DNA from: Patescibacteria group bacterium
GTDB lineage: Bacteria > Patescibacteriota > Patescibacteriia > Magasanikbacterales > JBBTQS01
DNA: 64,000 nucleotides
Assembly (NCBI GenBank): GCA_038065555.1
Contig: JBBTQS010000001.1
Span: 64,741 to 128,740 of the forward strand
Reading direction: 5' to 3'
The position numbers were made by a program, and so were the translations under genes. This document shows, one piece after another, positions 760 to 60,862 of this stretch (position 1 is the stretch's first letter; each line of letters begins with the position of its first letter). The notes beneath the pieces are model-generated. The model was not told the DNA's origin. It searched no databases and worked only from the letters and a program-made list of their open reading frames with translations.

Positions 760-1662
760 ATGCAACATCTGCAATTGATCTGGTTCATTTTCGGGCTCAT
801 CGTCGTGGGAGCGATATTCGGCATCTGCGGCATCGGGATTATGCTCTTCGCGTGGCTCAAGCGAGCCACTGGGTGGCTCATCGGCAAGGACTCGGATCTG
901 TGGGAGCCATTCCCACGCGGTCCGAGATTCTGGAATTGGCTCATCTACGCGACGCTGCGAGCATTTCTTCCTGTGGAAGTACGCATCTCGGGGAAGAAAT
1001 CGCTGCAACGTCTTGATCCGCGTGGACGTGCTATCGTCTTCGCGAACCATCCAACGGAGATCGAATTTCCGCTCTGCTACCGGCTCATGTTCGAGCACAT
1101 TCCGCTGGCCATGCTATCGACGCAAGCTGGATGGAATCGGTATCTCATCATGGGACCGCTCTTCGATCTGGCGGGATCTGCGATTCTCTTGCGCCGAGCG
1201 AAGGATGGGTACAATGCAGGGGAAGGACGAACTGATCTGCGCGATGGTCTGCGCAAGCTCTTTGCACCGGGCAAATCACTGACAATCCATCCGGATTCCA
1301 GTCGACCTAGCCCTTCGCGCATTCAAGCGCGTAACGAGAAGTACCACACCGACTTCCGCTACATCGTGGCGCCGCGCATCGGCGGGGTGAAAACAATTCT
1401 TGATCATCTCGACGAGGAGGGTATTCGCAACGTTCCAATCGTACTGTACACATCGGGATTCGGATTCCGTGTGGAGACCAAGTCGGTCACACAGTGGTTC
1501 CGGGTTCGGGGCAAGGTGTTCTTCGCAGACTTCGATGTCGTCTCGAGCGATTCGTTGCCACGAGATGAGCAAGCGCTCGGTGTGTGGCTCGGTGCGTGGG
1601 CATCAGGCTGCGATTCCAAGCTCCACGGCGCAGCGATTCACAACGGATTTGCGCCAGAGTAG
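760..1662 (+). CDS. lysophospholipid acyltransferase (PlsC/LPLAT-like)
   Basis: N-terminal TM helix; acyltransferase-like blocks FANHPTEIEF (NHxxxxE), ILLRRAK, LTIHPDSSRPS; start chosen at ATG 760 preceded by AAGGAGG. Confidence 0.5.
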   Translation: MQHLQLIWFIFGLIVVGAIFGICGIGIMLFAWLKRATGWLIGKDSDLWEPFPRGPRFWNWLIYATLRAFLPVEVRISGKKSLQRLDPRGRAIVFANHPTEIEFPLCYRLMFEHIPLAMLSTQAGWNRYLIMGPLFDLAGSAILLRRAKDGYNAGEGRTDLRDGLRKLFAPGKSLTIHPDSSRPSPSRIQARNEKYHTDFRYIVAPRIGGVKTILDHLDEEGIRNVPIVLYTSGFGFRVETKSVTQWFRVRGKVFFADFDVVSSDSLPRDEQALGVWLGAWASGCDSKLHGAAIHNGFAPE

Positions 1663-1748
1663 TTCACAACTTCGCGCGCGCACAACAATTACAGAACCAA
1701 CAATGCCGACCCAGGAGGATCGGCATTGTCATTTTTTGTGTCGTTTTT

Positions 1749-2684
1749 TTAGACCTTTGGTTTGCGGCGCGCTTTGGCACAGGCTACGGCGTAATCGATG
1801 ATCGCGCCTGCAATATCTTTGCCAGTGGCTTGGGTGATGCCACGCAATCCAGGGTTGGAGTTGACCTCGAGAATCTTCGGACCAGACTTGGTGCGCAGGA
1901 GATCGACGCCTGCAATGTCGAGGTCGCATGCCTTTGCGGCCTTGATTGCAAGTGCCTTCTCCTTCGCAGTGAGTGTGGCCTCACGAACCGTTCCGCCGAG
2001 TGAGAAGTTGGAACGGAATTCATCGCGAATGATGGTGTTGCGCTCCATTGCAGCCACAACCTTGTCGCCAACAACGAAGATGCGAATATCCTTGCCGCTG
2101 CTCTCCTTCACGTATTCTTGGATGATGAGCGGGGATGAGTTCTCAGACTCGACAAGCATGTCGACGATAGATCGCAAACCGCGGCGGCTTTCAACAATTG
2201 CCACGCCAATTCCCTCGTTGCCACCAAATGCCTTGATCACAACAGGATAGGATCCGACGACCTTCATCACTTCCTCAATATATTTGGAAGCGCGAATGAC
2301 CAATGTCTTTGGCATTGGGATGCCGAATCGCTTGAGCACTTGCATGGTGCGAATCTTGTTCTTCGAGCGCATCACCGAGATGTGATTGTTGAGCACTGGG
2401 ATTCCGAGGAATTCGAACTGGTGAATGGTGCTCACGTGCAAGTCGAGCTCGGTGCCACGAAATGACGGACGAACAATAATAGCATCAAATCCTCTAAGAG
2501 GTTTGTTCTTGTAGAGGAGGCGTGGAGTCTTGATGAATTCGAGCTGACAATCCATCGCAGAGATCATCTCGAATTTGTGCCCGCGGCTCAGTGCTGCTTC
2601 ACGCAACATTTCGCCGCTGATTTTTGCATCAGCGTTGGCGCCGAGCTTTTCGTAATTGGTGAAGGTCAGTACTGCAATACGCAT
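1749..2684 (-). CDS. rimK: RimK-family ATP-grasp ligase (alpha-L-glutamate ligase-like)
   Basis: ATP-grasp signature across the full length (VIKAFGGNEGIGV, IQEYVKESSGKDIRIFVVGDKVVAAMER, LEVNSNPGLRGI). Confidence 0.75.
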   Translation of the reverse strand: MRIAVLTFTNYEKLGANADAKISGEMLREAALSRGHKFEMISAMDCQLEFIKTPRLLYKNKPLRGFDAIIVRPSFRGTELDLHVSTIHQFEFLGIPVLNNHISVMRSKNKIRTMQVLKRFGIPMPKTLVIRASKYIEEVMKVVGSYPVVIKAFGGNEGIGVAIVESRRGLRSIVDMLVESENSSPLIIQEYVKESSGKDIRIFVVGDKVVAAMERNTIIRDEFRSNFSLGGTVREATLTAKEKALAIKAAKACDLDIAGVDLLRTKSGPKILEVNSNPGLRGITQATGKDIAGAIIDYAVACAKARRKPKV

Positions 2685-2714
2685 ACTGGTCAATTCAGTG
2701 AGTGAGAATGTGTG

Positions 2715-2748
2715 GCAAAAAAGAATCCACCCCGACCACGAGGCCGGG
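2715..2748 (-). terminator. rho-independent terminator downstream of rplT
   Basis: GC hairpin ccccg...cgggg followed on the minus strand by a TTCTTTTTTGCC run. Confidence 0.4.
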
Positions 2749-2759
2749 GCAGGTAGAGA

Positions 2760-3104
2760 TTACTTAACGGATTCTACGATCTTCTTGAAAACCTCAGGCT
2801 TGGTGCGAGCGATCTCAGAGAGGACCTTGCGGTCGAGCTTCACAGCCTTCTTCTTGAGCGCGTTGATGAACACGCTGTAGGTAGTGCCGAGCTCGCGAAG
2901 TGCTGCGTTGAGGCGCACTGTCCAGAGCGCGCGATTGGTGCGCTTCTTGAGCTTGCGACCAATGTACGCCTGCATGCCGGCCTTGAGGACAGCAGTCTTT
3001 GCTTGCTTGGTGAGTTTCTTACGACCCCACTTGAAGCCCTTGGTTTGCTTGAGCAGTTTGGCACGCTTTGTCTGGCGTACGGTTCCGCGTTTGACTCTTG
3101 GCAT
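2760..3104 (-). CDS. rplT: 50S ribosomal protein L20
   Basis: MPRVKRGTVRQTKRAKLLKQTKGF... canonical L20 over its whole length. Confidence 0.95.
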   Translation of the reverse strand: MPRVKRGTVRQTKRAKLLKQTKGFKWGRKKLTKQAKTAVLKAGMQAYIGRKLKKRTNRALWTVRLNAALRELGTTYSVFINALKKKAVKLDRKVLSEIARTKPEVFKKIVESVK

Positions 3105-3114
3105 AGTAGTTCTT

Positions 3115-3360
3115 CTATTTTGCGGTTACGTCCGTTGCAGGCTTGCGCTTCGGTGCCTTGCCAGCAAGGTAGGGAAGAGCGCGCAAGATGGTCTTGCGCT
3201 TCGTCTCGCTCATACCATGATCGCGACGCTTCTTACGCGTCTGATTGCCGGTATCGCGGGAGTTGAAGTGGTCCTGACCCGCACTGCGATGGATAATTTT
3301 CTTGTTCTTGGTCACGCGCAGGCGCTTTGCGAATGCTTTGACCGTCTTGAGCTTGGGCAT
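3115..3360 (-). CDS. rpmI: 50S ribosomal protein L35
   Basis: MPKLKTVKAFAKRLRVTKNKKIIHRSAGQDHF canonical L35 N-terminus; internal start of the longer ORF chosen. Confidence 0.85.
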   Translation of the reverse strand: MPKLKTVKAFAKRLRVTKNKKIIHRSAGQDHFNSRDTGNQTRKKRRDHGMSETKRKTILRALPYLAGKAPKRKPATDVTAK

Positions 3361-3433
3361 ACAATTTGCTTGAAAACTTGCGCTACTATACCCGAATGGG
3401 GCAGAACACGCAAGAGGGGAAAACCCCAGTAAA

Positions 3434-4069
3434 TTAAGGGTTCTCGTTCGCTTCTTCGTCTGTTCCTGTATCCTCGTCCTCATCGTCGTCTTTGTCCTCT
3501 ACCACTACGTTGGCCTTCACGGTGCCTGCAACGAGTGCAGTAATCTTGTTTCCTTGGCGTTTGACCTCTTGTTCTACGATGAGATCTGCAGATTCACCCA
3601 AGGTCTTGATGAAGTCGTGCATAACACCTTCGGCAAGCTCGCGGTGGGCCTGTTCACGACCGCGCAAGATCATTTCGATCTTCACTTTGTCGCCACGCTT
3701 GAGGAATCGCAAGGATTGCTGAATACGAATGGCAGTATCGTGGCCACCGATGCGCGCACTGATACGAATACCTTTGACCTCGATTGCCTTCTGCTTTTGC
3801 TTCTTGAGACGCTCTTCCTTGTCCTTCTGGTACTTGAACTGACCGTAATCAACGATTTTGCAGATTGGTGGGTTGCTTTTTGGGTTGATTTCTACCAAAT
3901 CGTGTCCTTCGCGGCGAGCGAGTGATACCGCCTCTTCGAGTGTGATGTCGCCCAAATGTTCGCCATTGAACCCAATCACGCGTACGCGAGGTACACGAAT
4001 GTGGTCATTGAATCGATACACCGGTGCGGTATCAACGGGAGCGTAGCGGCGTTTGCGGGAAATGCGCAT
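3434..4069 (-). CDS. infC: translation initiation factor IF-3
   Basis: IF3 N and C domains (VRVIGFNGEHLG..., KIEMILRGREQAH...); acidic C-terminal tail; start uncertain because IF3 often uses a non-ATG start. Confidence 0.85.
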   Translation of the reverse strand: MRISRKRRYAPVDTAPVYRFNDHIRVPRVRVIGFNGEHLGDITLEEAVSLARREGHDLVEINPKSNPPICKIVDYGQFKYQKDKEERLKKQKQKAIEVKGIRISARIGGHDTAIRIQQSLRFLKRGDKVKIEMILRGREQAHRELAEGVMHDFIKTLGESADLIVEQEVKRQGNKITALVAGTVKANVVVEDKDDDEDEDTGTDEEANENP

Positions 4070-4182
4070 TGCGATGGACTTAGAATATGTGGGCAGTATA
4101 AGGAAGAACGGCAAAACTGTCAATAAAATCAATGACCGGACGAGCAGTGCTGCTGCGTCCGGTCTTCGAAGTCACGTGCGAG

Positions 4183-5127
4183 TTACATCTCGACGAGGGC
4201 GTCGAGGAACCAGTCCACTCCTGCGAGATTGGGTGCAACGAGTCCGCATCCCGATTCTCTGACGAAATCCTTCTCCCATTCGGGGGTGAACTCAGTTGCG
4301 AGATGAATGTACGTCATCTCGAGTTCCATGGGGAGTAGTCCGTCGCAGTGGAGACTGTCACCTGCGACGTAGGCTCTGCGGTCTGTATTGTAGCGGGACT
4401 GCAGATCCATGAGAACGCGGTAGTAGAAGCCGCGCTGTGGGTACGCGTCATATCCTGCTCCAGGGAAGGGGAAGGATACACGCGTTTGCTCCCACATGGG
4501 TTCGAATGCGGCCTGTTCTTCTGCGGACCATGTGTCGCTGCGCATGGTCAGTAGGTGCTTGCCAGCATTGCCTACGACAAAGCCAGGTTCGACCTCATGG
4601 CCTAGGAGGATTTGCATCTTTCCCTCTACAGGCTTTGTGTCCGAGCCTGTCACTATGTGCAGGCCGACGTCTGGATGCGCGCGCCACTTTTGCACGAGTT
4701 CCTTGGCCCCTTCTCGGAAGATGGGCTTGGGATCGTAGCACTTCTTGTGTACGGCGTGCAGCATCTCTTCGCGTTCTCGCTCCGAACCGTAGCGCCTTTC
4801 ACATGCGTCGAGGGTGAGTCCAGCGAGCACGCGCATGTACACGTATGCATCCATGAACGTCGGCGCGACGGTGCGACCACTCAGATCGCGCATGCCGTAC
4901 GCGTTCGAGTTGGCCCTGACTTGGTCGGCTGCGTGTTTGAGCTGTTCCTGAACTACTTGCTCTGGAATGCCTGTTGCTGCTGCGAGCTCTGACGGGTAGC
5001 GCTCGATGAATTTCTCGCCTTCCTCCCAGCCCTTGGTGAGGAAGTTGTCACAGTCGAAGACTATGAGTCTTTTGTTGCTTCGTTCGTTCACGGTTGCTCC
5101 TTTGTGTGCCGTGATTGGCGCGTGCAT
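4183..5127 (-). CDS. HAD-superfamily hydrolase, paralog A
   Basis: DxD motif LIVFDCDNF, HIVTGSDTKP and VAGDSLHCD blocks; the N-terminal 79 aa of the ORF is treated as read-through. Confidence 0.5.
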   Translation of the reverse strand: MHAPITAHKGATVNERSNKRLIVFDCDNFLTKGWEEGEKFIERYPSELAAATGIPEQVVQEQLKHAADQVRANSNAYGMRDLSGRTVAPTFMDAYVYMRVLAGLTLDACERRYGSEREREEMLHAVHKKCYDPKPIFREGAKELVQKWRAHPDVGLHIVTGSDTKPVEGKMQILLGHEVEPGFVVGNAGKHLLTMRSDTWSAEEQAAFEPMWEQTRVSFPFPGAGYDAYPQRGFYYRVLMDLQSRYNTDRRAYVAGDSLHCDGLLPMELEMTYIHLATEFTPEWEKDFVRESGCGLVAPNLAGVDWFLDALVEM

Positions 5128-5152
5128 GCTAGCAAGTGCGGTGGATTTGTCA

Positions 5153-5197
5153 ATGGAAAAAGGAAAGACCAGCACGAGTGTGTTCGTGCTGGTCTTT
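5153..5197 (-). terminator. rho-independent terminator between the two HAD paralogs
   Basis: aaagaccagcacg / cgtgctggtcttt stem followed on the minus strand by CTTTCCTTTTTCC. Confidence 0.45.
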
Positions 5198-5219
5198 GCG
5201 TTGCCACGTGGGCAGCCAC

Positions 5220-6140
5220 TCACCAGGGCGTGTTCAGGATCTGAACCAGCTCGGCGATGGACGTGACCATGTGGGCGTTGGGCCGTGTGGGCAGCCACTG
5301 ATGCAGGTAGGGTGGTGTGTTCTCCGTCTCGAGGCAGATCACGCGAGCGCCCAGGTGTTGCCACATCGCGAGGTCCAGCTCCCAGATGTCGCCGGCGACG
5401 GTGATGCGCTCGATCGGCGTCTTGCGATTGTTGATGAGCTGGCTCACCAGCTTGCGGTACTTGCCTCGACGCAGGTACACCTCTCGTCTATGCATCCCCG
5501 GTACTTGGATCGAGATGGGGAAGTTGGATTCCCACGGGTACTGCGTGCCGTCGATGTCGAGTTCGAACTTGCCAGCTTGTCCCCAGACCAGGTCTGCGTT
5601 GACGAATCCGGAGACCTCTGAGATTCGCCCCGAGACATGTTCTGTCCTCGAGTTGGTCACGATGTGGATCGGACCGTCCTCGCGCAGGTCGTTGATCTCG
5701 CAGATCAGCTCCTCGGCGCCGGGGCGCAGTGGTGGTACGTACTTCAGGTAGTTGGCACCGTAGAGTTCGTTGAGCACTTCTGCGCGCCGCACGGGGTCGT
5801 GGAATCGATTCGCTCGAGTGAAGATCACTTCTGCAATTGATCTGCAGCGCAGATACGGGTCTGCCAGTCCCGGGGCAACGATGTGTCCTTCGAATCGCAT
5901 GCCGTGTTCCTCGGGATTGGCGCGGATGGCGGCTTCGATCTGACCCATGAGGCCACGCGTCCAATCACGAGGCTGGCCGATGTGTTCTGCCAGACTCGTT
6001 GCGTACGCCTCGACATACGGATGTTTGCCTTCCTCGTCGAGCGCTTCGCAGTCTGTGAAGAGTCCATCGAAGTCGAGGATCACCGCTTCGTTCTCCGGAA
6101 CCGTGAACTGGCACTCGAAGGCAGTATCAGATGTTGTCAT
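5220..6140 (-). CDS. HAD-superfamily hydrolase, paralog B
   Basis: ILDFDGLFTD, HIVTNSRTEH, VAGDIWELD; same architecture as paralog A. Confidence 0.55.
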   Translation of the reverse strand: MTTSDTAFECQFTVPENEAVILDFDGLFTDCEALDEEGKHPYVEAYATSLAEHIGQPRDWTRGLMGQIEAAIRANPEEHGMRFEGHIVAPGLADPYLRCRSIAEVIFTRANRFHDPVRRAEVLNELYGANYLKYVPPLRPGAEELICEINDLREDGPIHIVTNSRTEHVSGRISEVSGFVNADLVWGQAGKFELDIDGTQYPWESNFPISIQVPGMHRREVYLRRGKYRKLVSQLINNRKTPIERITVAGDIWELDLAMWQHLGARVICLETENTPPYLHQWLPTRPNAHMVTSIAELVQILNTPW

Positions 6141-12052: not shown

Positions 12053-13066
12053 ATGGAAGACACACGCGATAACGAGAACACAGTAGAGAGTCAGGCAGGA
12101 GAAATGCAGGTGATGGAACACGAACCAGATGACGCAGGGCAGCCTGCACCTCGAACTCCAGTAGATACGCGCAGCATGCGTCGTGGATTGTGGAGCGCAC
12201 TTGGCGCAGTTGTTGTTGTGTTGTTGATTCTCTTCTTCTACGGCGTGTACGGACCTGGTTGGCAGTCGAGTGTGATCACCAAGCCTGCAACGATGTTGCG
12301 ATTGCCTGTGGCGTCTGTTGGTGATTCGTGGGTGACCTATGGTCGCTTGCGTGAATATATTGGTTTGATCGAAGGATTCAGAGCGATGGATATCAAGTCT
12401 GGCGCTGCGGCACCTGTGGCTGTGAATCGCGCACAGGACGTGGAGACAGCATTGCAGCGATTCCGTGAGATGGAAGTGCTCAATCAGTTGGCGCAACAGT
12501 ACAATGTGTCCGTAGAGCCAGGTTCTGCGTGGGCAGTGTATGAGTCTCGTGGCGTACCGTTGCCAACAGACGCCGATCTAGCATCGGTTGGGACCAATCG
12601 CGAACGATTCCAAGAGATTATTTTGACTCCCGTGTTGCTTGCGGAGAAGGTTGGTGCTGCGATCGCATCTGACGCAAGCTATATTTCGTCTGTTACCAAC
12701 GAAGCAACAGCAGTACATGAGCGTGTAACGACAAAGAAAGAAGATTTTGCTGTGGTTGCCAAAGAGGTGAGTGATGATACTGGCTCTGCGGTCAATGGCG
12801 GTGATCTCGACTGGTTCGGTAAGGGTGCGATGGTTCCAGAATTTGAGGCTGCAGCATTTGCACTCAAGAAGGGCGAGATCAGCAAGCCAGTACAGACGCA
12901 GTATGGTCAGCACATTATCCAAGTGACCGATATTCGCACCAATGCTGCAACAAAGGCGAAGGAAGTTCGTGCACGTCACATTCTCATCGCATTCCCATCG
13001 CTCAACGAAATCGCTTCTCAGAAGGAAGGAACAGTTGAGGTTGACTCGTACATTAATTGGCGCTAG
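12053..13066 (+). CDS. PpiC-type peptidyl-prolyl cis-trans isomerase (SurA/PrsA-like)
   Basis: N-terminal TM helix; parvulin domain ([43 protein letters not shown]). Confidence 0.7.
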
Positions 13067-13109
13067 AACAGTGTAGATATTCTGGTACGCTAGATCTGAG
13101 CGTGCCACC

Positions 13110-13183
13110 GCGGGATTAGTACAATGGTAGTATGCTTGCTTCCCAAGCAAGAGACGCGAGTCCGATTCTCGTATCCCGCTCCA
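13110..13183 (+). tRNA. tRNA-Gly (anticodon CCC), CCA encoded
   Basis: GCGGGAT..CTTGCTTCCCAAGCAAG..GAGTCCGATTCTCGT ATCCCGC T CCA. Confidence 0.85.
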
Positions 13184-13335
13184 TTTTTCTTTCTTTGTTT
13201 CAGGAGTACAACGTCGCTCGCCCTCCGGGACTCGCGCGTCTCTATCTCGATTTGCCGGATGTGTATCAACGCCTCGCGGCGTTTTTGGTTGGCCGGCAAA
13301 TCTGCGATGGCCTCCTGAAACAAAGAAAGAAAAAG
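13184..13335. repeat. about 150 bp element bounded by perfect 23 bp inverted repeats, with a nested inner 10 bp inverted repeat, immediately 3' of tRNA-Gly
   Basis: left arm ttttctttctttgtttcaggag and right arm ctcctgaaacaaagaaagaaaa are exact reverse complements; inner gatttgccgg / ccggcaaatc. Confidence 0.5.
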
Positions 13336-15765: not shown

Positions 15766-15805
15766 ATACAGTAGACCCCCGAATTTCCGTTTTGGAAGTT
15801 CGGGG
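15766..15805. terminator. bidirectional hairpin between tRNA-Thr and the convergent gene
   Basis: agacccccgaa / ttcgggggtct 11 bp perfect stem with a small nested stem. Confidence 0.4.
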
Positions 15806-15825
15806 GTCTCTGGTTGTTGGGGGAG

Positions 15826-20374: not shown

Positions 20375-21670
20375 TTACGCGTTCTTCTTGGCTCGAGAGG
20401 TCTCCTTGTGCCCATCGACAAGTTTCTGGAACTCGTCGATGGGGAAGTGGATACCGTGGCGACCGCAGAATTCTGAGAGGAGATCTTCTGGGATCCCCAG
20501 CTCAGATTTCAAGGTGAAGGCATGGGTGGCGCTGATCTCCTGTGCCGCAGCGATCTTGTCGAGGTGTTTCTTGCTGCGTTGCAGCACACGCACGAAGCTG
20601 TCGCGTTCCGATTGGATCCAGCCGTTGACAGCTGATTCGTGACGGAGCGTGAGTTCGCGATTGTCGATTGCGACGCAGAGCGAATGCACCCAGCCTGTGA
20701 GAGCCGTGAGCTCGACTCCGTGGAGTTGTGCTCCGATCATCGTTCGTCTGAGAGCTCTGCGAAGCAGATACCCCTCCCGAACGTTGCTTGGAACCACCCC
20801 TTCCCGGATCATCAGGATTGCCGTCTTCAGATGATCGAGGATGATTCGGCTCCACCTCGTGTCACCAACGCTCTCCTGGATGAGTCGGAAGGAGGTGGAG
20901 TACTGATCGATTTCGTGGATCGACGCGCGATCCTGCAGGATCATCGAGAATCGTTCCATCCCCGCGCCCGTGTCTACGCACTTCATGGGGAGATTGGTGA
21001 TAGCACCGTTCTCGTCCTTGAAGTATTGCATGAAGACGCCAGCGTTCCAGATCTCGATGTGTCGACCGGGAACGAGCACATCATCCGTTTCTTTCTCGGC
21101 GAAGGATTCGCCTCGATCGAAGAAGACTTCGGTGCACGGACCGCACGGACCGCTCGTTCCGGCGGGTCCCCAGAAGTTGTCCTCCGGAGGGCGGCCGATG
21201 ATGTGGTCGCGAGGGAGGAAGCGTTCCCAGATGCGTGCGGACTCTTCGTCGCTGGGCACACCAGGGAGGCTGTCGTCGGCATTGAACACGGTCGCGTACA
21301 AGCGATCCGCAGGAATGCCGAACTCTCCAGTGATGAGCTCGAATGCGAGTTCGATCGCTCGCTCCTTGAAGTAGTCACCGAATGACCACGAACCCATCAT
21401 TCGGAAACTCGTACCATGGTAGGAGTCTCCGACACTCTCGAAGTCCACGAAGCGGATGCAATCCTGGACGTTGGTGAGGCGTGGGTAGGGTGGTGTGGCC
21501 TGCCCTGTGAAGTAGGGCTTCATAGGGGCCATGCCGGAGTTGATGAACATCAGGGTAGGATCGTCCTTCGGCATGATGCCAGAGGGCGATATATACCGGT
21601 GTTCGCGATTAAGGAAATGCTCCAGGAAGGTCTGGCGCACCTCCTCGGCCGTTTTGTATGGTAATTTCAA
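20375..21670 (-). CDS. alaS: alanine--tRNA ligase N-terminal fragment (aminoacylation and tRNA-recognition domains only; no editing or C-Ala domain)
   Basis: AlaRS signatures TAEEVRQTFLEHF, DPTLMFINSGM, SFRMMGSWSFGDYFK, FWGPAGTSGPCGPCTEVFFD, EIWNAGVFMQYF, VDTGAGMERF, GVVPSNVREGYLLRRALRR; start chosen at TTG 21670 with a GAGGAGG RBS (ORF track extends to 21736). Confidence 0.8.
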   Translation of the reverse strand: MKLPYKTAEEVRQTFLEHFLNREHRYISPSGIMPKDDPTLMFINSGMAPMKPYFTGQATPPYPRLTNVQDCIRFVDFESVGDSYHGTSFRMMGSWSFGDYFKERAIELAFELITGEFGIPADRLYATVFNADDSLPGVPSDEESARIWERFLPRDHIIGRPPEDNFWGPAGTSGPCGPCTEVFFDRGESFAEKETDDVLVPGRHIEIWNAGVFMQYFKDENGAITNLPMKCVDTGAGMERFSMILQDRASIHEIDQYSTSFRLIQESVGDTRWSRIILDHLKTAILMIREGVVPSNVREGYLLRRALRRTMIGAQLHGVELTALTGWVHSLCVAIDNRELTLRHESAVNGWIQSERDSFVRVLQRSKKHLDKIAAAQEISATHAFTLKSELGIPEDLLSEFCGRHGIHFPIDEFQKLVDGHKETSRAKKNA

Positions 21671-21743
21671 AGAAGCCTCCTCTTTGAGGGGTTGAAGAGC
21701 GTGAGGAACGATATAGTATTTTTTGTTTTTTGGCAAGAGGTTG

Positions 21744-39128: not shown

Positions 39129-39458
39129 ATGGAAAACAGATTCAAGAAAGGATTATTGCTCGGAGCACTTCTTGCAGGCGTTGCAGTAGCTGGATTGCTC
39201 AGAACGCAGTCAGGTCAAGAGCTTGCAGAAGATCTCAAGGAAGATGCAAAGAAGATTGGCCGCAAGGTCAAGCGTCACCTCGCTGATCTCGAAGACGTCA
39301 CTCGTGACAAGTACGATGAGATCGTTGAGAACGTAGTCGAGGAGTACACGAAGACCAAAGAGTTGGCAGCAGATGCAAAGAAGCAACTCATTGGCGCGCT
39401 TCGCAAGAAGTGGGATGAAGTAGAAAAGGAATACCAAGACGCAAAAGACGACGAGTAA
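39129..39458 (+). CDS. YtxH-like (DUF948) general-stress protein
   Basis: N-terminal TM helix and charged coiled segment. Confidence 0.5.
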   Translation: MENRFKKGLLLGALLAGVAVAGLLRTQSGQELAEDLKEDAKKIGRKVKRHLADLEDVTRDKYDEIVENVVEEYTKTKELAADAKKQLIGALRKKWDEVEKEYQDAKDDE

Positions 39459-39462
39459 TACA

Positions 39463-39495
39463 AAAAGAGCGCACAGAGAGTGCGCTCTTTTTGTA
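39463..39495. terminator. bidirectional rho-independent terminator
   Basis: aaaaagagcgcac-agaga-gtgcgctcttttt. Confidence 0.7.
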
Positions 39496-39511
39496 TTGAG
39501 CAATGTGTGAT

Positions 39512-47742: not shown

Positions 47743-48135
47743 ATGATGAATGCAATGAAGAAGTGTCCAAACACTGGACTGTTTCTCATTCGCGTCGCGG
47801 TTGCGATGGTGTTCTTGTACGCTGGTATTAACAAGCTCATGGTGGGCGGTGAAGCCGGTGGTGCAATGTTCGCGTCCATGGGTATTACCATGGCTCCAAT
47901 GTTCTGGTTCTGGGTTGTAGCACTTGTTGAGACACTCGGTGGCGCAGCAATGCTCCTCGGTGTGTGGACACAGTGCGCTGGATATTTGCTCGCATTCATC
48001 ATGCTCGTTGCAATCATCCTCGTGCACTGGAGCGCAGGATACATGGGAATGCAGTACCCACTCGTGATGATGCTCGTGTCTCTTGGTATCGCAATGGTAG
48101 GGCCTGGAACTTGGGCACTGATGCGCGAGAAGTAA
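47743..48135 (+). CDS. DoxX-family membrane protein (copy 2)
   Basis: DoxX four-TM layout; immediately downstream of bcp. Confidence 0.55.
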   Translation: MMNAMKKCPNTGLFLIRVAVAMVFLYAGINKLMVGGEAGGAMFASMGITMAPMFWFWVVALVETLGGAAMLLGVWTQCAGYLLAFIMLVAIILVHWSAGYMGMQYPLVMMLVSLGIAMVGPGTWALMREK

Positions 48136-48159
48136 ACTCGTACTCACGTTGTAAGCAAC

Positions 48160-48238
48160 AAAACCCCACGATATTTCTTTTCCAAGCCCGGACCTCAGTT
48201 AACGGGGAGGACTTGGAAAAGAAATATCGTGGGGTTTT
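48160..48238. repeat. 27 bp perfect palindrome with 25 nt loop between convergent genes (terminator or REP-like)
   Basis: aaaaccccacgatatttcttttccaag ... cttggaaaagaaatatcgtggggtttt. Confidence 0.6.
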
Positions 48239-48254
48239 GGCGTTTGTAACCTGA

Positions 48255-48890
48255 CTACGAGTTGATGAGAGGGTAGAAGTCTGCGTGGGTGTCTATGTAG
48301 TAATCGGGGTTCACAGCTCGGAGTTGGGATTCCGACTGGTAGCCGGTTCCGATGGCTGCGGTTTTGTATCTTGCTTGTTTGGCGTAGTGCATGTCTTGGA
48401 TGGTGTCGCCGGTGTAGAGGGCTTGGGTGGAGGGATCGTCTACGTAGAGTTGTGCCATTTCGCGTAGGGCTGCGTCTTTTGCTCGGCAGTCGCCGATGAC
48501 GAAGTCGAAGTGCTCGCGCAGTCCGTAGCGTTCTGCTTCGGCTTCTAGATTTTTTTGCGGGTGCGCGCTGACGATGCCGACGATTTTGTTGGCGTTGCGC
48601 AGTGCGCGGATGAGCGCGGGGACTGCTTCGTACATGGTGGGCTCTGTGCCTTCGGCTAGTACTTCGTCGAAAAGTCGTTTGTAGTCAGACCAGATTTGCT
48701 CAGCGCTGAGACTTGGGTTGGCGATTTGGAAGAGCTCTACTACATTGCCAACAGATGTGCGCATCCAGTCCTCATAGGAGATCTGTTCGAGGCCGTATGC
48801 ATCGCGCATGCGCATGTTCGCTTGGTACACAGGTGGGCGGTCGTCACTGAGCGTTCCGCTCCAGTCGAATGCGAAGAGGGTGATGGGCAT
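48255..48890 (-). CDS. HAD-IA family hydrolase (phosphoglycolate-phosphatase-like)
   Basis: FAFDWSGTL and C-terminal GD motif. Confidence 0.6.
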   Translation of the reverse strand: MPITLFAFDWSGTLSDDRPPVYQANMRMRDAYGLEQISYEDWMRTSVGNVVELFQIANPSLSAEQIWSDYKRLFDEVLAEGTEPTMYEAVPALIRALRNANKIVGIVSAHPQKNLEAEAERYGLREHFDFVIGDCRAKDAALREMAQLYVDDPSTQALYTGDTIQDMHYAKQARYKTAAIGTGYQSESQLRAVNPDYYIDTHADFYPLINS

Positions 48891-60825: not shown

Positions 60826-60862
60826 CACAAAAAACCGCACACTCGAGTGTGCGGTTTTTTGT
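60826..60862. terminator. bidirectional rho-independent terminator
   Basis: aaaaa-ccgcacac-tcga-gtgtgcgg-tttttt. Confidence 0.7.

Follow-up and report, generated by a model that had tools for sequence, protein, structure and literature searches.

The segment at 13184-13335 of the window (the whole 64-kb stretch of DNA that was analysed) was interpreted as a single-copy, lineage-restricted structured RNA locus with the layout of a three-way junction, and not as a transposon relic. This reading, in which the RNA is more likely made from the minus strand and the closing stem P1 is a stem of the RNase III type, was given slightly better than even confidence. The element is a probable new small structured RNA. 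Judged from the comparison of related genomes, it is a nucleic-acid structure under selection. The element is new, narrowly distributed and without an Rfam counterpart. The preliminary description had set a structured RNA beside a miniature inverted-repeat element (MITE) or an integration scar, and its structured-RNA alternative is right in kind.

The element is bounded by a perfect 23-bp inverted repeat (13184-13206, TTTTTCTTTCTTTGTTTCAGGAG; 13312-13334, CTCCTGAAACAAAGAAAGAAAAA), with coordinates and sequences as first described, and the arms reach 30 nt at 90% complementarity. The perfect arms enclose a spacer of 105 nt with nested hairpins. Everything reported for this spacer was recovered, including an inner perfect 10-bp repeat (GATTTGCCGG, 13249-13258; CCGGCAAATC, 13293-13302) and GC-rich sub-hairpins, one of which has 6 bp and lies at 13268-13283. 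The sequence of the 23-bp arm occurred at two places in the 64-kb window, both of them arms of the element, with 0 expected from 100 shuffles. Folding energies were expressed as z-scores against dinucleotide shuffles. The element folded with -72.4 kcal/mol (z = -8.1) on the plus strand and -75.4 kcal/mol (z = -8.9) on the minus strand, energies that none of 200 shuffles matched. The repeat thus lies far outside what chance would produce. RNAalifold returned an architecture common to both strands, consisting of the closing stem P1, a side hairpin P2, a helix P3 and a long P4-P5 arm. The element is accordingly modelled as a three-way junction in which P1 (23-24 bp) carries P2 and the longer P3-P4-P5 arm. 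Three short, nearly invariant sequences line this junction. The parts are as follows.

13083-13107, plus strand: small hairpin that follows the stop codon of the PpiC/PrsA-like gene and precedes the tRNA 5' end, listed for context; part of the element only as conjecture.
13110-13183, plus strand: tRNA-Gly(CCC), from ARAGORN, Rfam tRNA (64.7 bits) and the alignment.
13184-13335, listed as minus strand, the more likely functional strand: whole element, a candidate RNA of ~150 nt; strand from folding energy, the asymmetry of G·U and C·A pairs, GNRA loops and the composition of unpaired positions.
13184-13206: tRNA-side arm of P1, pyrimidine-rich, pairing perfectly with 13312-13334.
13207-13210: junction strand TACA (UGUA on the minus strand), from the alignments.
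13210-13240: P2, GC-rich side hairpin in which a bulged base is conserved, from per-sequence folds.
13239-13249: core motif TCTCTATCTCG (CGAGAUAGAGA on the minus strand), from the alignments.
13244-13246: P3, short invariant helix in which ATC pairs with GAT at 13306-13308, linking the junction to P4, from RNAalifold on both strands.
13249-13258: 5' arm of P4, GATTTGCCGG, pairing with 13293-13302.
13268-13283: P5, apical hairpin AACGCC-TCGC-GGCGTT; its minus-strand loop GCGA is a GNRA tetraloop.
13293-13302: 3' arm of P4, CCGGCAAATC, from the inverted-repeat search.
13303-13311: conserved junction strand TGCGATGGC (GCCAUCGCA on the minus strand), from the alignments.
13312-13334: NUDIX-side arm of P1, purine-rich, from the inverted-repeat search and pair counts.

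The locus lies within a run of genes at 8.3-15.5 kb, all on the plus strand with short gaps, that encode a P-type ATPase, a bPH_2-like protein, DivIC, PpiC, tRNA-Gly, then (after the element) a NUDIX hydrolase, a 115-aa protein and riboflavin synthase. The PpiC/PrsA-like protein is encoded at 12053-13066, upstream of the tRNA, and an identical protein is encoded on Hainich groundwater contigs from the 0.1-µm fraction. Five contigs of the window's species carry an identical element. The adjacency to the tRNA noted earlier was confirmed and the 1-nt offset corrected, as the stem begins at the base right after the encoded CCA with no gap. CCA is encoded in this genome only; relatives read cta, ccg or cag at the same place. 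The tRNA-Gly(CCC) is 100% identical in all relatives examined. P1 starts 3-5 nt after the discriminator base in relatives, and 0-5 nt from the tRNA 3' end over all species. A hairpin is also present 2-4 nt before the tRNA 5' end in all relatives.

Downstream of the element lies the NUDIX hydrolase gene or, in the relative L006, a 64-aa ORF of no assigned function. An ORF begins 22 nt beyond the element in L006, L008 and L011, that of L006 being an unrelated island gene. The site just downstream is a gene-insertion hotspot with 3-kb islands in L006 and L010. The genes of these two islands yielded no informative domains, except for one sub-threshold match resembling nucleoside deoxyribosyltransferase. 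Cumulative GC skew climbs smoothly across the element, and the site is therefore neither a replication origin nor a terminus.

Relatives were gathered via PpiC homologues, which formed four protein clusters at 76-97% identity, with the next at 36%. The element was located after tRNA-Gly(CCC) in L006 (PpiC 97% identical), in L007-L009 (PpiC 79%; L012 and L015 repeat this sequence) and in L011 (PpiC 76%). A fifth, partial variant was reached from a NUDIX homologue in L021/L022. The element is thus conserved at the orthologous site by tRNA-Gly(CCC) in five lineages, which belong to a single narrow clade of groundwater Patescibacteria. L010 (PpiC 76%) keeps PpiC, the tRNA and the NUDIX gene, and has a 3-kb gene block of no assigned function directly after the tRNA and no element. 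L010 is as close to the window as L008 and L011, yet is without the element, which is therefore dispensable or relocated. In L006 a different 3-kb block is inserted after the element.

Beyond this clade, genomes with the same DivIC-PpiC order (PpiC 32-36% identical) had no such hairpin; one of the distant relatives without the element, L018, has a tRNA-Gly in the same position. NUDIX homologues at ~65% identity lay in an unrelated gene cluster without the element. A search of genome contigs with the 3' 31-mer of the tRNA gave three loci, among which the only clade member was L012, identical to L008 across the element. A pattern of three motifs matched once in metagenome contigs, on a 483-kb contig of a relative, and not at all in viral contigs. 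A two-motif pattern gave 29 matches in viral contigs, none of which fits the covariance model, and these were discarded as chance matches. The covariance model, run over 146 kb including the whole window, returned only copies that were already known.

The stems have been largely rewritten between species and are still paired. The tRNA-side arm of P1 reads TTTTTCTTTCTTTGTTTCAGGAG in the window, GTTTTTCCTTCTTCTTTTCAGGAG in L006 and GCCTTTCCTCTTATTTGCTAGGAG in L008, and the opposite arm is the exact complement in each. In the alignment, 11 of 24 P1 pairs are altered on both sides with pairing kept. The sequence of P2 is almost wholly replaced between species with the hairpin retained (5-6 of 10-11 pairs altered on both sides), and 3 of 10 pairs in P4 are altered on both sides. 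The P3 pairs are invariant and give no covariation evidence. RNAalifold counted 24/54 pairs altered on both sides on the plus strand and 21/53 on the minus strand among the four full-length sequences, which differ greatly. The known set comprises only these four and one partial sequence, all closely related, so that shared changes are counted more than once and the counts are not independent events. By pair counting, 93% of cells were paired and 0 of 500 shuffles reached any observed measure. A control in which the partners were slid gave only 2-6 doubly changed pairs.

The unpaired sequence at the junction behaves differently from the stems. The 11-nt core motif TCTCTATCTCG is identical in the window, L006, L008 and L021, with one change in L011. 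CGAT(G/A)(G/A)CC is kept in all five lineages, and relatives keep GTAC or GTCC beside P1 at the junction. The fourfold-degenerate sites of PpiC are 78% identical to the window in L006 and 35-45% in L008 and L011; TCTCTATCTCG, CGAT(G/A)(G/A)CC and AGGAG(T/G)AC are preserved despite this high neutral divergence. The stems thus evolve by paired changes while the junction sequence stays fixed. A single copy and no conservation in relatives had been named beforehand as findings that would count against the element. It is indeed single-copy in the window; conservation is present, at an orthologous site and with compensatory changes.

The element encodes no protein. Six-frame translations from four species share no open frame, so a protein-coding reading was dropped, and the earlier view that the ORFs predicted here are spurious held, no frame on either strand being open in all four species. 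Compensatory changes in helices combined with no conserved frame, as observed here, are the generic features of a conserved structured non-coding RNA.

Searches for a known identity were negative. The RNA-family covariance search suggested in the preliminary description reported tRNA alone at the Rfam gathering score, and at E <= 10 the sole extra match was CRISPR-DR21, by chance (18.9 bits, cut-off 48). Rfam families including 6S, SRP, Y RNA/YrlA, T-box, ribozymes and riboswitches gave no match. An intrinsic terminator was rejected, as no U-tract follows P1 on either strand, the U-rich arm standing before the stem and the A-rich arm after it. The P5 hairpin with its T run was rejected as a terminator as well; the T run is confined to the window and L006 and is not conserved in L008 or L011. 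An invertible DNA switch (inverton) was set aside on the single orientation found in five same-species contigs and all relatives, with no recombinase nearby, and an inverton would not be expected to have covarying interior helices. A retron non-coding RNA was discounted with no reverse transcriptase within 10 kb. Pairing between the element and the tRNA body was also considered; the 14-nt complementarity (13150-13163 with 13228-13241) is at about the estimated chance level and is not kept in L008.

If the element is taken to be an RNA, the minus strand is favoured, at roughly twice the weight of the plus strand. Minus- and plus-strand energies were respectively -75.4 and -72.4 kcal/mol in the window, and -82.4 and -82.2, -87.0 and -82.7, and -80.1 and -64.3 kcal/mol in the other three species. 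On one shared model-based alignment the consensus energy was -74.4 kcal/mol for the minus strand versus -68.7 kcal/mol for the plus strand, with equal SCI. Within the consensus helices, half-compensated pairs become G·U when read from the minus strand and C·A when read from the plus strand. L011 has two of them in P1 and one in P5, L008 has two in P4, and the window and L011 have one in P2. The G·U pairs of the plus strand fall in helices outside the consensus or at a single junction position, where L011 has G·A. Counted strictly, 1x1 mismatches amounted to two G·U on the minus strand versus none on the plus strand, too few to stand alone. GNRA loops appear on the minus strand in P5 (GCGA in the window, GUGA in L006, GUGA in L011) and in P2 (GAGA in L008); on the plus strand the P2 loop is UCCG, of the UNCG type, in the window and L011. 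Of the positions left unpaired by both folds, 44% are A and 27% G when read from the minus strand, against 44% U and 27% C from the plus strand. Structured RNAs typically have unpaired regions that are rich in purines and in A.

Other measures were neutral or opposed. The percentage of paired cells on the MAFFT alignment (92.8% vs 93.4%) did not separate the strands, and the upstream hairpin at 13083-13107, used as a strand control, gave mixed results and was not taken as evidence. A promoter search of both strands returned nothing both conserved and convincing, and no promoter or terminator for a minus-strand gene was found. Against the minus strand, the neighbouring genes all run in the plus direction. 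The ORF 22 nt beyond the element in L006, L008 and L011 leaves little room for a minus-strand promoter, and the start of P1 within 0-5 nt of the tRNA 3' end is more naturally explained by a cut plus-strand transcript. The structured-RNA alternative had been put forward as a long-stem RNA co-transcribed with the tRNA. The long-stem RNA part is borne out by the conservation and compensatory changes; co-transcription is putative, and four indirect signals point to the opposite strand.

In the proposed mechanism the functional molecule would be RNA rather than DNA, read more likely from the minus strand and converging on the tRNA 3' end. P1, a perfect duplex of >22 bp, would be a processing stem of the kind cut by RNase III, like the stems that flank rRNA; the duplex length matches the RNase III requirement, which makes P1 probably a processing stem. 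Cleavage of P1 would free a stable small RNA, and the conserved junction probably binds a protein partner. Among the observations that tell against this explanation, P1 is without any G·U pair in three species, which is unusual for ordinary compensatory RNA evolution and fits homogenisation of a DNA inverted repeat, and L010, a close relative, does not have the element. A bolder version, which we regard as speculative and improbable, is that the element represents a previously undescribed class of Patescibacteria small RNA, whose gene would abut a tRNA gene end-to-end in antisense orientation. Either tRNA-processing enzymes or RNase III, acting on the 23-24-bp stem, would make one of its ends, and its conserved three-way-junction core would bind a specific protein or tRNA-Gly in a new ribonucleoprotein of organisms whose genomes are strongly reduced.

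The main rival, which we consider rather unlikely, is a cis element on the plus strand, the folded segment forming the 3' trailer of tRNA-Gly on the transcript of a PpiC-tRNA-NUDIX operon. After an RNase Z cut, the stable 5'-terminal stem would shield the downstream mRNA from 5'-end-dependent decay, or it would act as an RNase III site at which tRNA and mRNA are parted; the small hairpin preceding the tRNA would play the same part for the 3' end of the upstream mRNA. Such a role would need no separate promoter and agrees with the uniform plus-strand orientation and short gaps of the neighbouring genes, with the conserved hairpin 2-4 nt before the tRNA 5' end, and with the ORF that starts 22 nt past the element in three lineages, the unrelated island gene of L006 among them. 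P1 lies 0-5 nt past the tRNA end in every species, which fits the protective-stem rule; a protective 5' stem tolerates few unpaired bases only. A simple hairpin would suffice for protection, however, and the branched fold and invariant junction are left unexplained. The plus strand also folds less well in four of four species, has C·A mismatches and UCRC loops, with U at 44% and C at 27% of its unpaired positions, and L010 does without the element. The perfection of the stems could instead reflect events in DNA. The segment would then be a nested quasi-palindrome, extruded from single-stranded or supercoiled DNA as a hairpin or cruciform that serves as a recombination, replication or protein-binding site, or it would be functionless, with arms kept identical by template switching. 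In the window and L006, P1, P4 and P5 consist of Watson-Crick pairs throughout and lack G·U, and the stems have changed about as fast as neutral sites (78% identity at PpiC fourfold sites, window versus L006), each change being matched on the opposite arm. The insertion hotspot just downstream, with its 3-kb islands in L006 and L010, is in keeping with such a site. Repeat homogenisation leaves unexplained why the unpaired junction motifs are invariant, why the element persists at a single orthologous site when neutral divergence is saturated, and why the strands are asymmetric (G·U versus C·A, GNRA loops, purine-rich loops). No recombinase, integrase or repeated att-like sequence lies nearby, the smooth GC skew speaks against an origin or terminus, and the constant orientation in all contigs and species gives no sign of inversion. 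An explanation at the DNA level was judged improbable.

The remaining explanations carry much less weight. A 6S-like RNA, that is a rod-shaped open-promoter mimic that sequesters RNA polymerase, is suggested by the minus-strand layout, with its length of ~150 nt, a long closing stem ending in conserved G-C pairs, conserved sequence concentrated centrally and a side hairpin on the 3' side. The Rfam 6S models nevertheless gave no match even at E <= 10, and the central region, with just ~9 nt on its 5' side and these partly paired, does not open into a large bubble. P1 runs as an A-form duplex without interruption, unlike 6S stems with their regular bulges, and the element is absent from the same site in L010 and from distant Patescibacteria with the same gene order. 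A 6S-like function is very unlikely. The probability left for a MITE, or for the scar of an element integrated at the tRNA 3' end, is slighter again, close to negligible. The size and the perfect 23-bp terminal inverted repeats on a short non-coding element are those of a MITE, a tRNA 3' end is a plausible position for integration, islands downstream vary in L006 and L010, and L010 is without the element. The multiple copies expected from the preliminary description were not found, the element occurring once in the 64-kb window and once in the 483-kb contig of a relative, and its inner hairpin once within the window. The target-site duplication looked for on the same grounds was absent from the flanks (TCCA|...|GAGT in the window, TCTA|...|TTGG in L006), and no direct repeat of the tRNA 3' end was present on the far side in the window, L006 or L010. 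No integrase domain was detected among the called genes of these three, and no transposase in the neighbourhood. Similarity to phage and plasmid records was confined to the tRNA, with nothing beyond. Orthology in five lineages and covarying internal helices are unlike decaying repeats, and the MITE and scar readings were rejected.

Patescibacteria (CPR) are not cultivable alone and have minimal genomes, and to our knowledge almost nothing is known of their non-coding RNAs. In a minimal genome, a 150-nt structure that selection maintains is unlikely to lack a use. If it proves to be an RNA, the element would constitute a new family with a testable architecture, combining a perfect stem of the processing type, a three-way junction, GNRA loops and an unusual physical link to a tRNA gene. 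Its importance is moderate given the narrow range (five lineages, with one close relative lacking it). The element also gives reason for caution, in that a conserved structured element can be bounded by perfect terminal inverted repeats of MITE size. Short-read assemblies break at exactly such a point when they meet long inverted repeats like these.

Among known systems, the intrinsic terminators of the same genome resemble the element as stable intergenic hairpins after an RNA gene. Those at 60827-60862, 39457-39497 and 15773-15809 are ordered as A-run, stem and T-run, whereas the element is reversed on both strands, with the T-rich arm first and the A-rich arm last. MITEs share the length of ~150 bp and the perfect terminal inverted repeats; in contrast to them the element is single-copy, without target-site duplication, orthologous across species and equipped with covarying internal helices. 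Comparative genomics of bacterial intergenic regions has yielded sets of candidate orphan structured RNA motifs (PMC2864571, PMC8040213). Like these motifs, the element is intergenic and non-coding, has covarying helices around conserved junction nucleotides and is of narrow phylogenetic range; it differs in having no Rfam family, an unusually long and perfect closing stem (23-24 bp) and a tRNA gene adjoining it. Processed transcripts linked to tRNAs, such as tRNA 3' external transcribed spacers and ends of the MALAT1/mascRNA type, likewise place a structured RNA a few nt from a tRNA end, and RNase P or RNase Z could define one end here too. The strand signals of the element, however, favour the strand opposite the tRNA, and co-transcription is only putative. 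The stems flanking 16S and 23S rRNA that are cut by RNase III differ in what they enclose, which in the element is only ~105 nt and not rRNA, and RNase III cleavage would be predicted here from duplex length alone. In other respects P1 is like them, a perfect duplex of >20 bp formed by sequences that flank a structured RNA, in which the stem is free to vary as long as it remains paired and the enclosed core is conserved.

The sequence adjoining the ∼150-nt inverted-repeat element (13184-13335) was compared with contigs of relatives carrying the full element (L006, L008, L011), a partial element (L021, L022) or none (L010). The 3′-terminal CCA of tRNA-Gly(CCC) (13181-13183) is encoded in this genome only, whereas the genes of L006, L008 and L011, identical apart from the CCA, continue with cta, ccg or cag. 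Pairing of the tRNA body with P2, the GC-rich side hairpin of the element, was considered and rejected: complementarity between 14 nt of the variable region and T-stem (13150-13163) and the P2 3′ strand (13228-13241) is 86%, near the chance level estimated for the region, and the pairing is not retained in L008. On the other side of the tRNA lies a smaller structure:

13083-13107, small hairpin of 9-11 bp between the stop codon of the PpiC/PrsA-like gene and the 5′ end of tRNA-Gly.

This hairpin ends 2-4 nt upstream of tRNA-Gly and is retained at this position, with varying sequence, in all relatives (L006, L008, L010, L011). Once RNase P has cut, the PpiC message may have its 3′ end at this hairpin.

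The interval between tRNA-Gly and the downstream NUDIX hydrolase gene holds two unlike 3-kb insertions, at 5061-7880 in L006 (downstream of the element) and at 5124-8050 in L010 (immediately downstream of the tRNA). The genes of both blocks are mostly unknown, one L006 protein giving a sub-threshold match to nucleoside 2-deoxyribosyltransferase, and neither an integrase nor flanking repeats were found in the two blocks. The tRNA-proximal region is a gene-gain hotspot.

Short-read contig L005 stops at 4886, a few bases before the tRNA 3′ end (last bases ...CCCGCT), and the independent contigs L021 and L022 begin at the identical base, within P2. Assemblies appear to be broken at this locus by the inverted repeats, and elements of this type may therefore be under-represented in metagenome assemblies. 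In L012 (CAZVGV010000003.1), a GTDB representative titled 'uncultured Gammaproteobacteria bacterium', the tRNA-element-NUDIX sequence is the same as in L008, a contig of Patescibacteria type, which casts doubt on either the binning of L012 or its organism label.

A further long hairpin was observed at 48135-48263, flanked by two minus-strand ORFs. Its 55-nt arms are 85% complementary and contain a perfect 27-bp stem core, AAAACCCCACGATATTTCTTTTCCAAG, read from the sequence by eye. With its stem preceded by an A-run and followed by a T-run, it looks like a bidirectional terminator of unusual length; an Rfam search (E ≤ 10) returned generic hairpin (miRNA-precursor) matches only. The window also contains a truncated-looking synthetase gene:

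20375-21736, minus strand, short alanyl-tRNA-synthetase-like gene (about 430-452 aa, catalytic domain only).

An NCBI protein 100% identical to its product is annotated 'alanine--tRNA ligase-related protein', and many of the listed homologues from Patescibacteria are equally short.

NUDIX proteins with ∼65% identity to that of the window are encoded around 1400-5400 in each of two contigs (L019, L020). There they belong to a conserved cluster, unlike that of the window and without the element, in which the NUDIX gene is preceded by those for dCMP deaminase and an unknown protein of 490-519 aa and followed by two further unknown genes. DarT, ADP-ribosylglycohydrolase and SduA_C-like genes adjoin the cluster in L019. 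This setting hints that the NUDIX subfamily may act in nucleotide-targeting defence.
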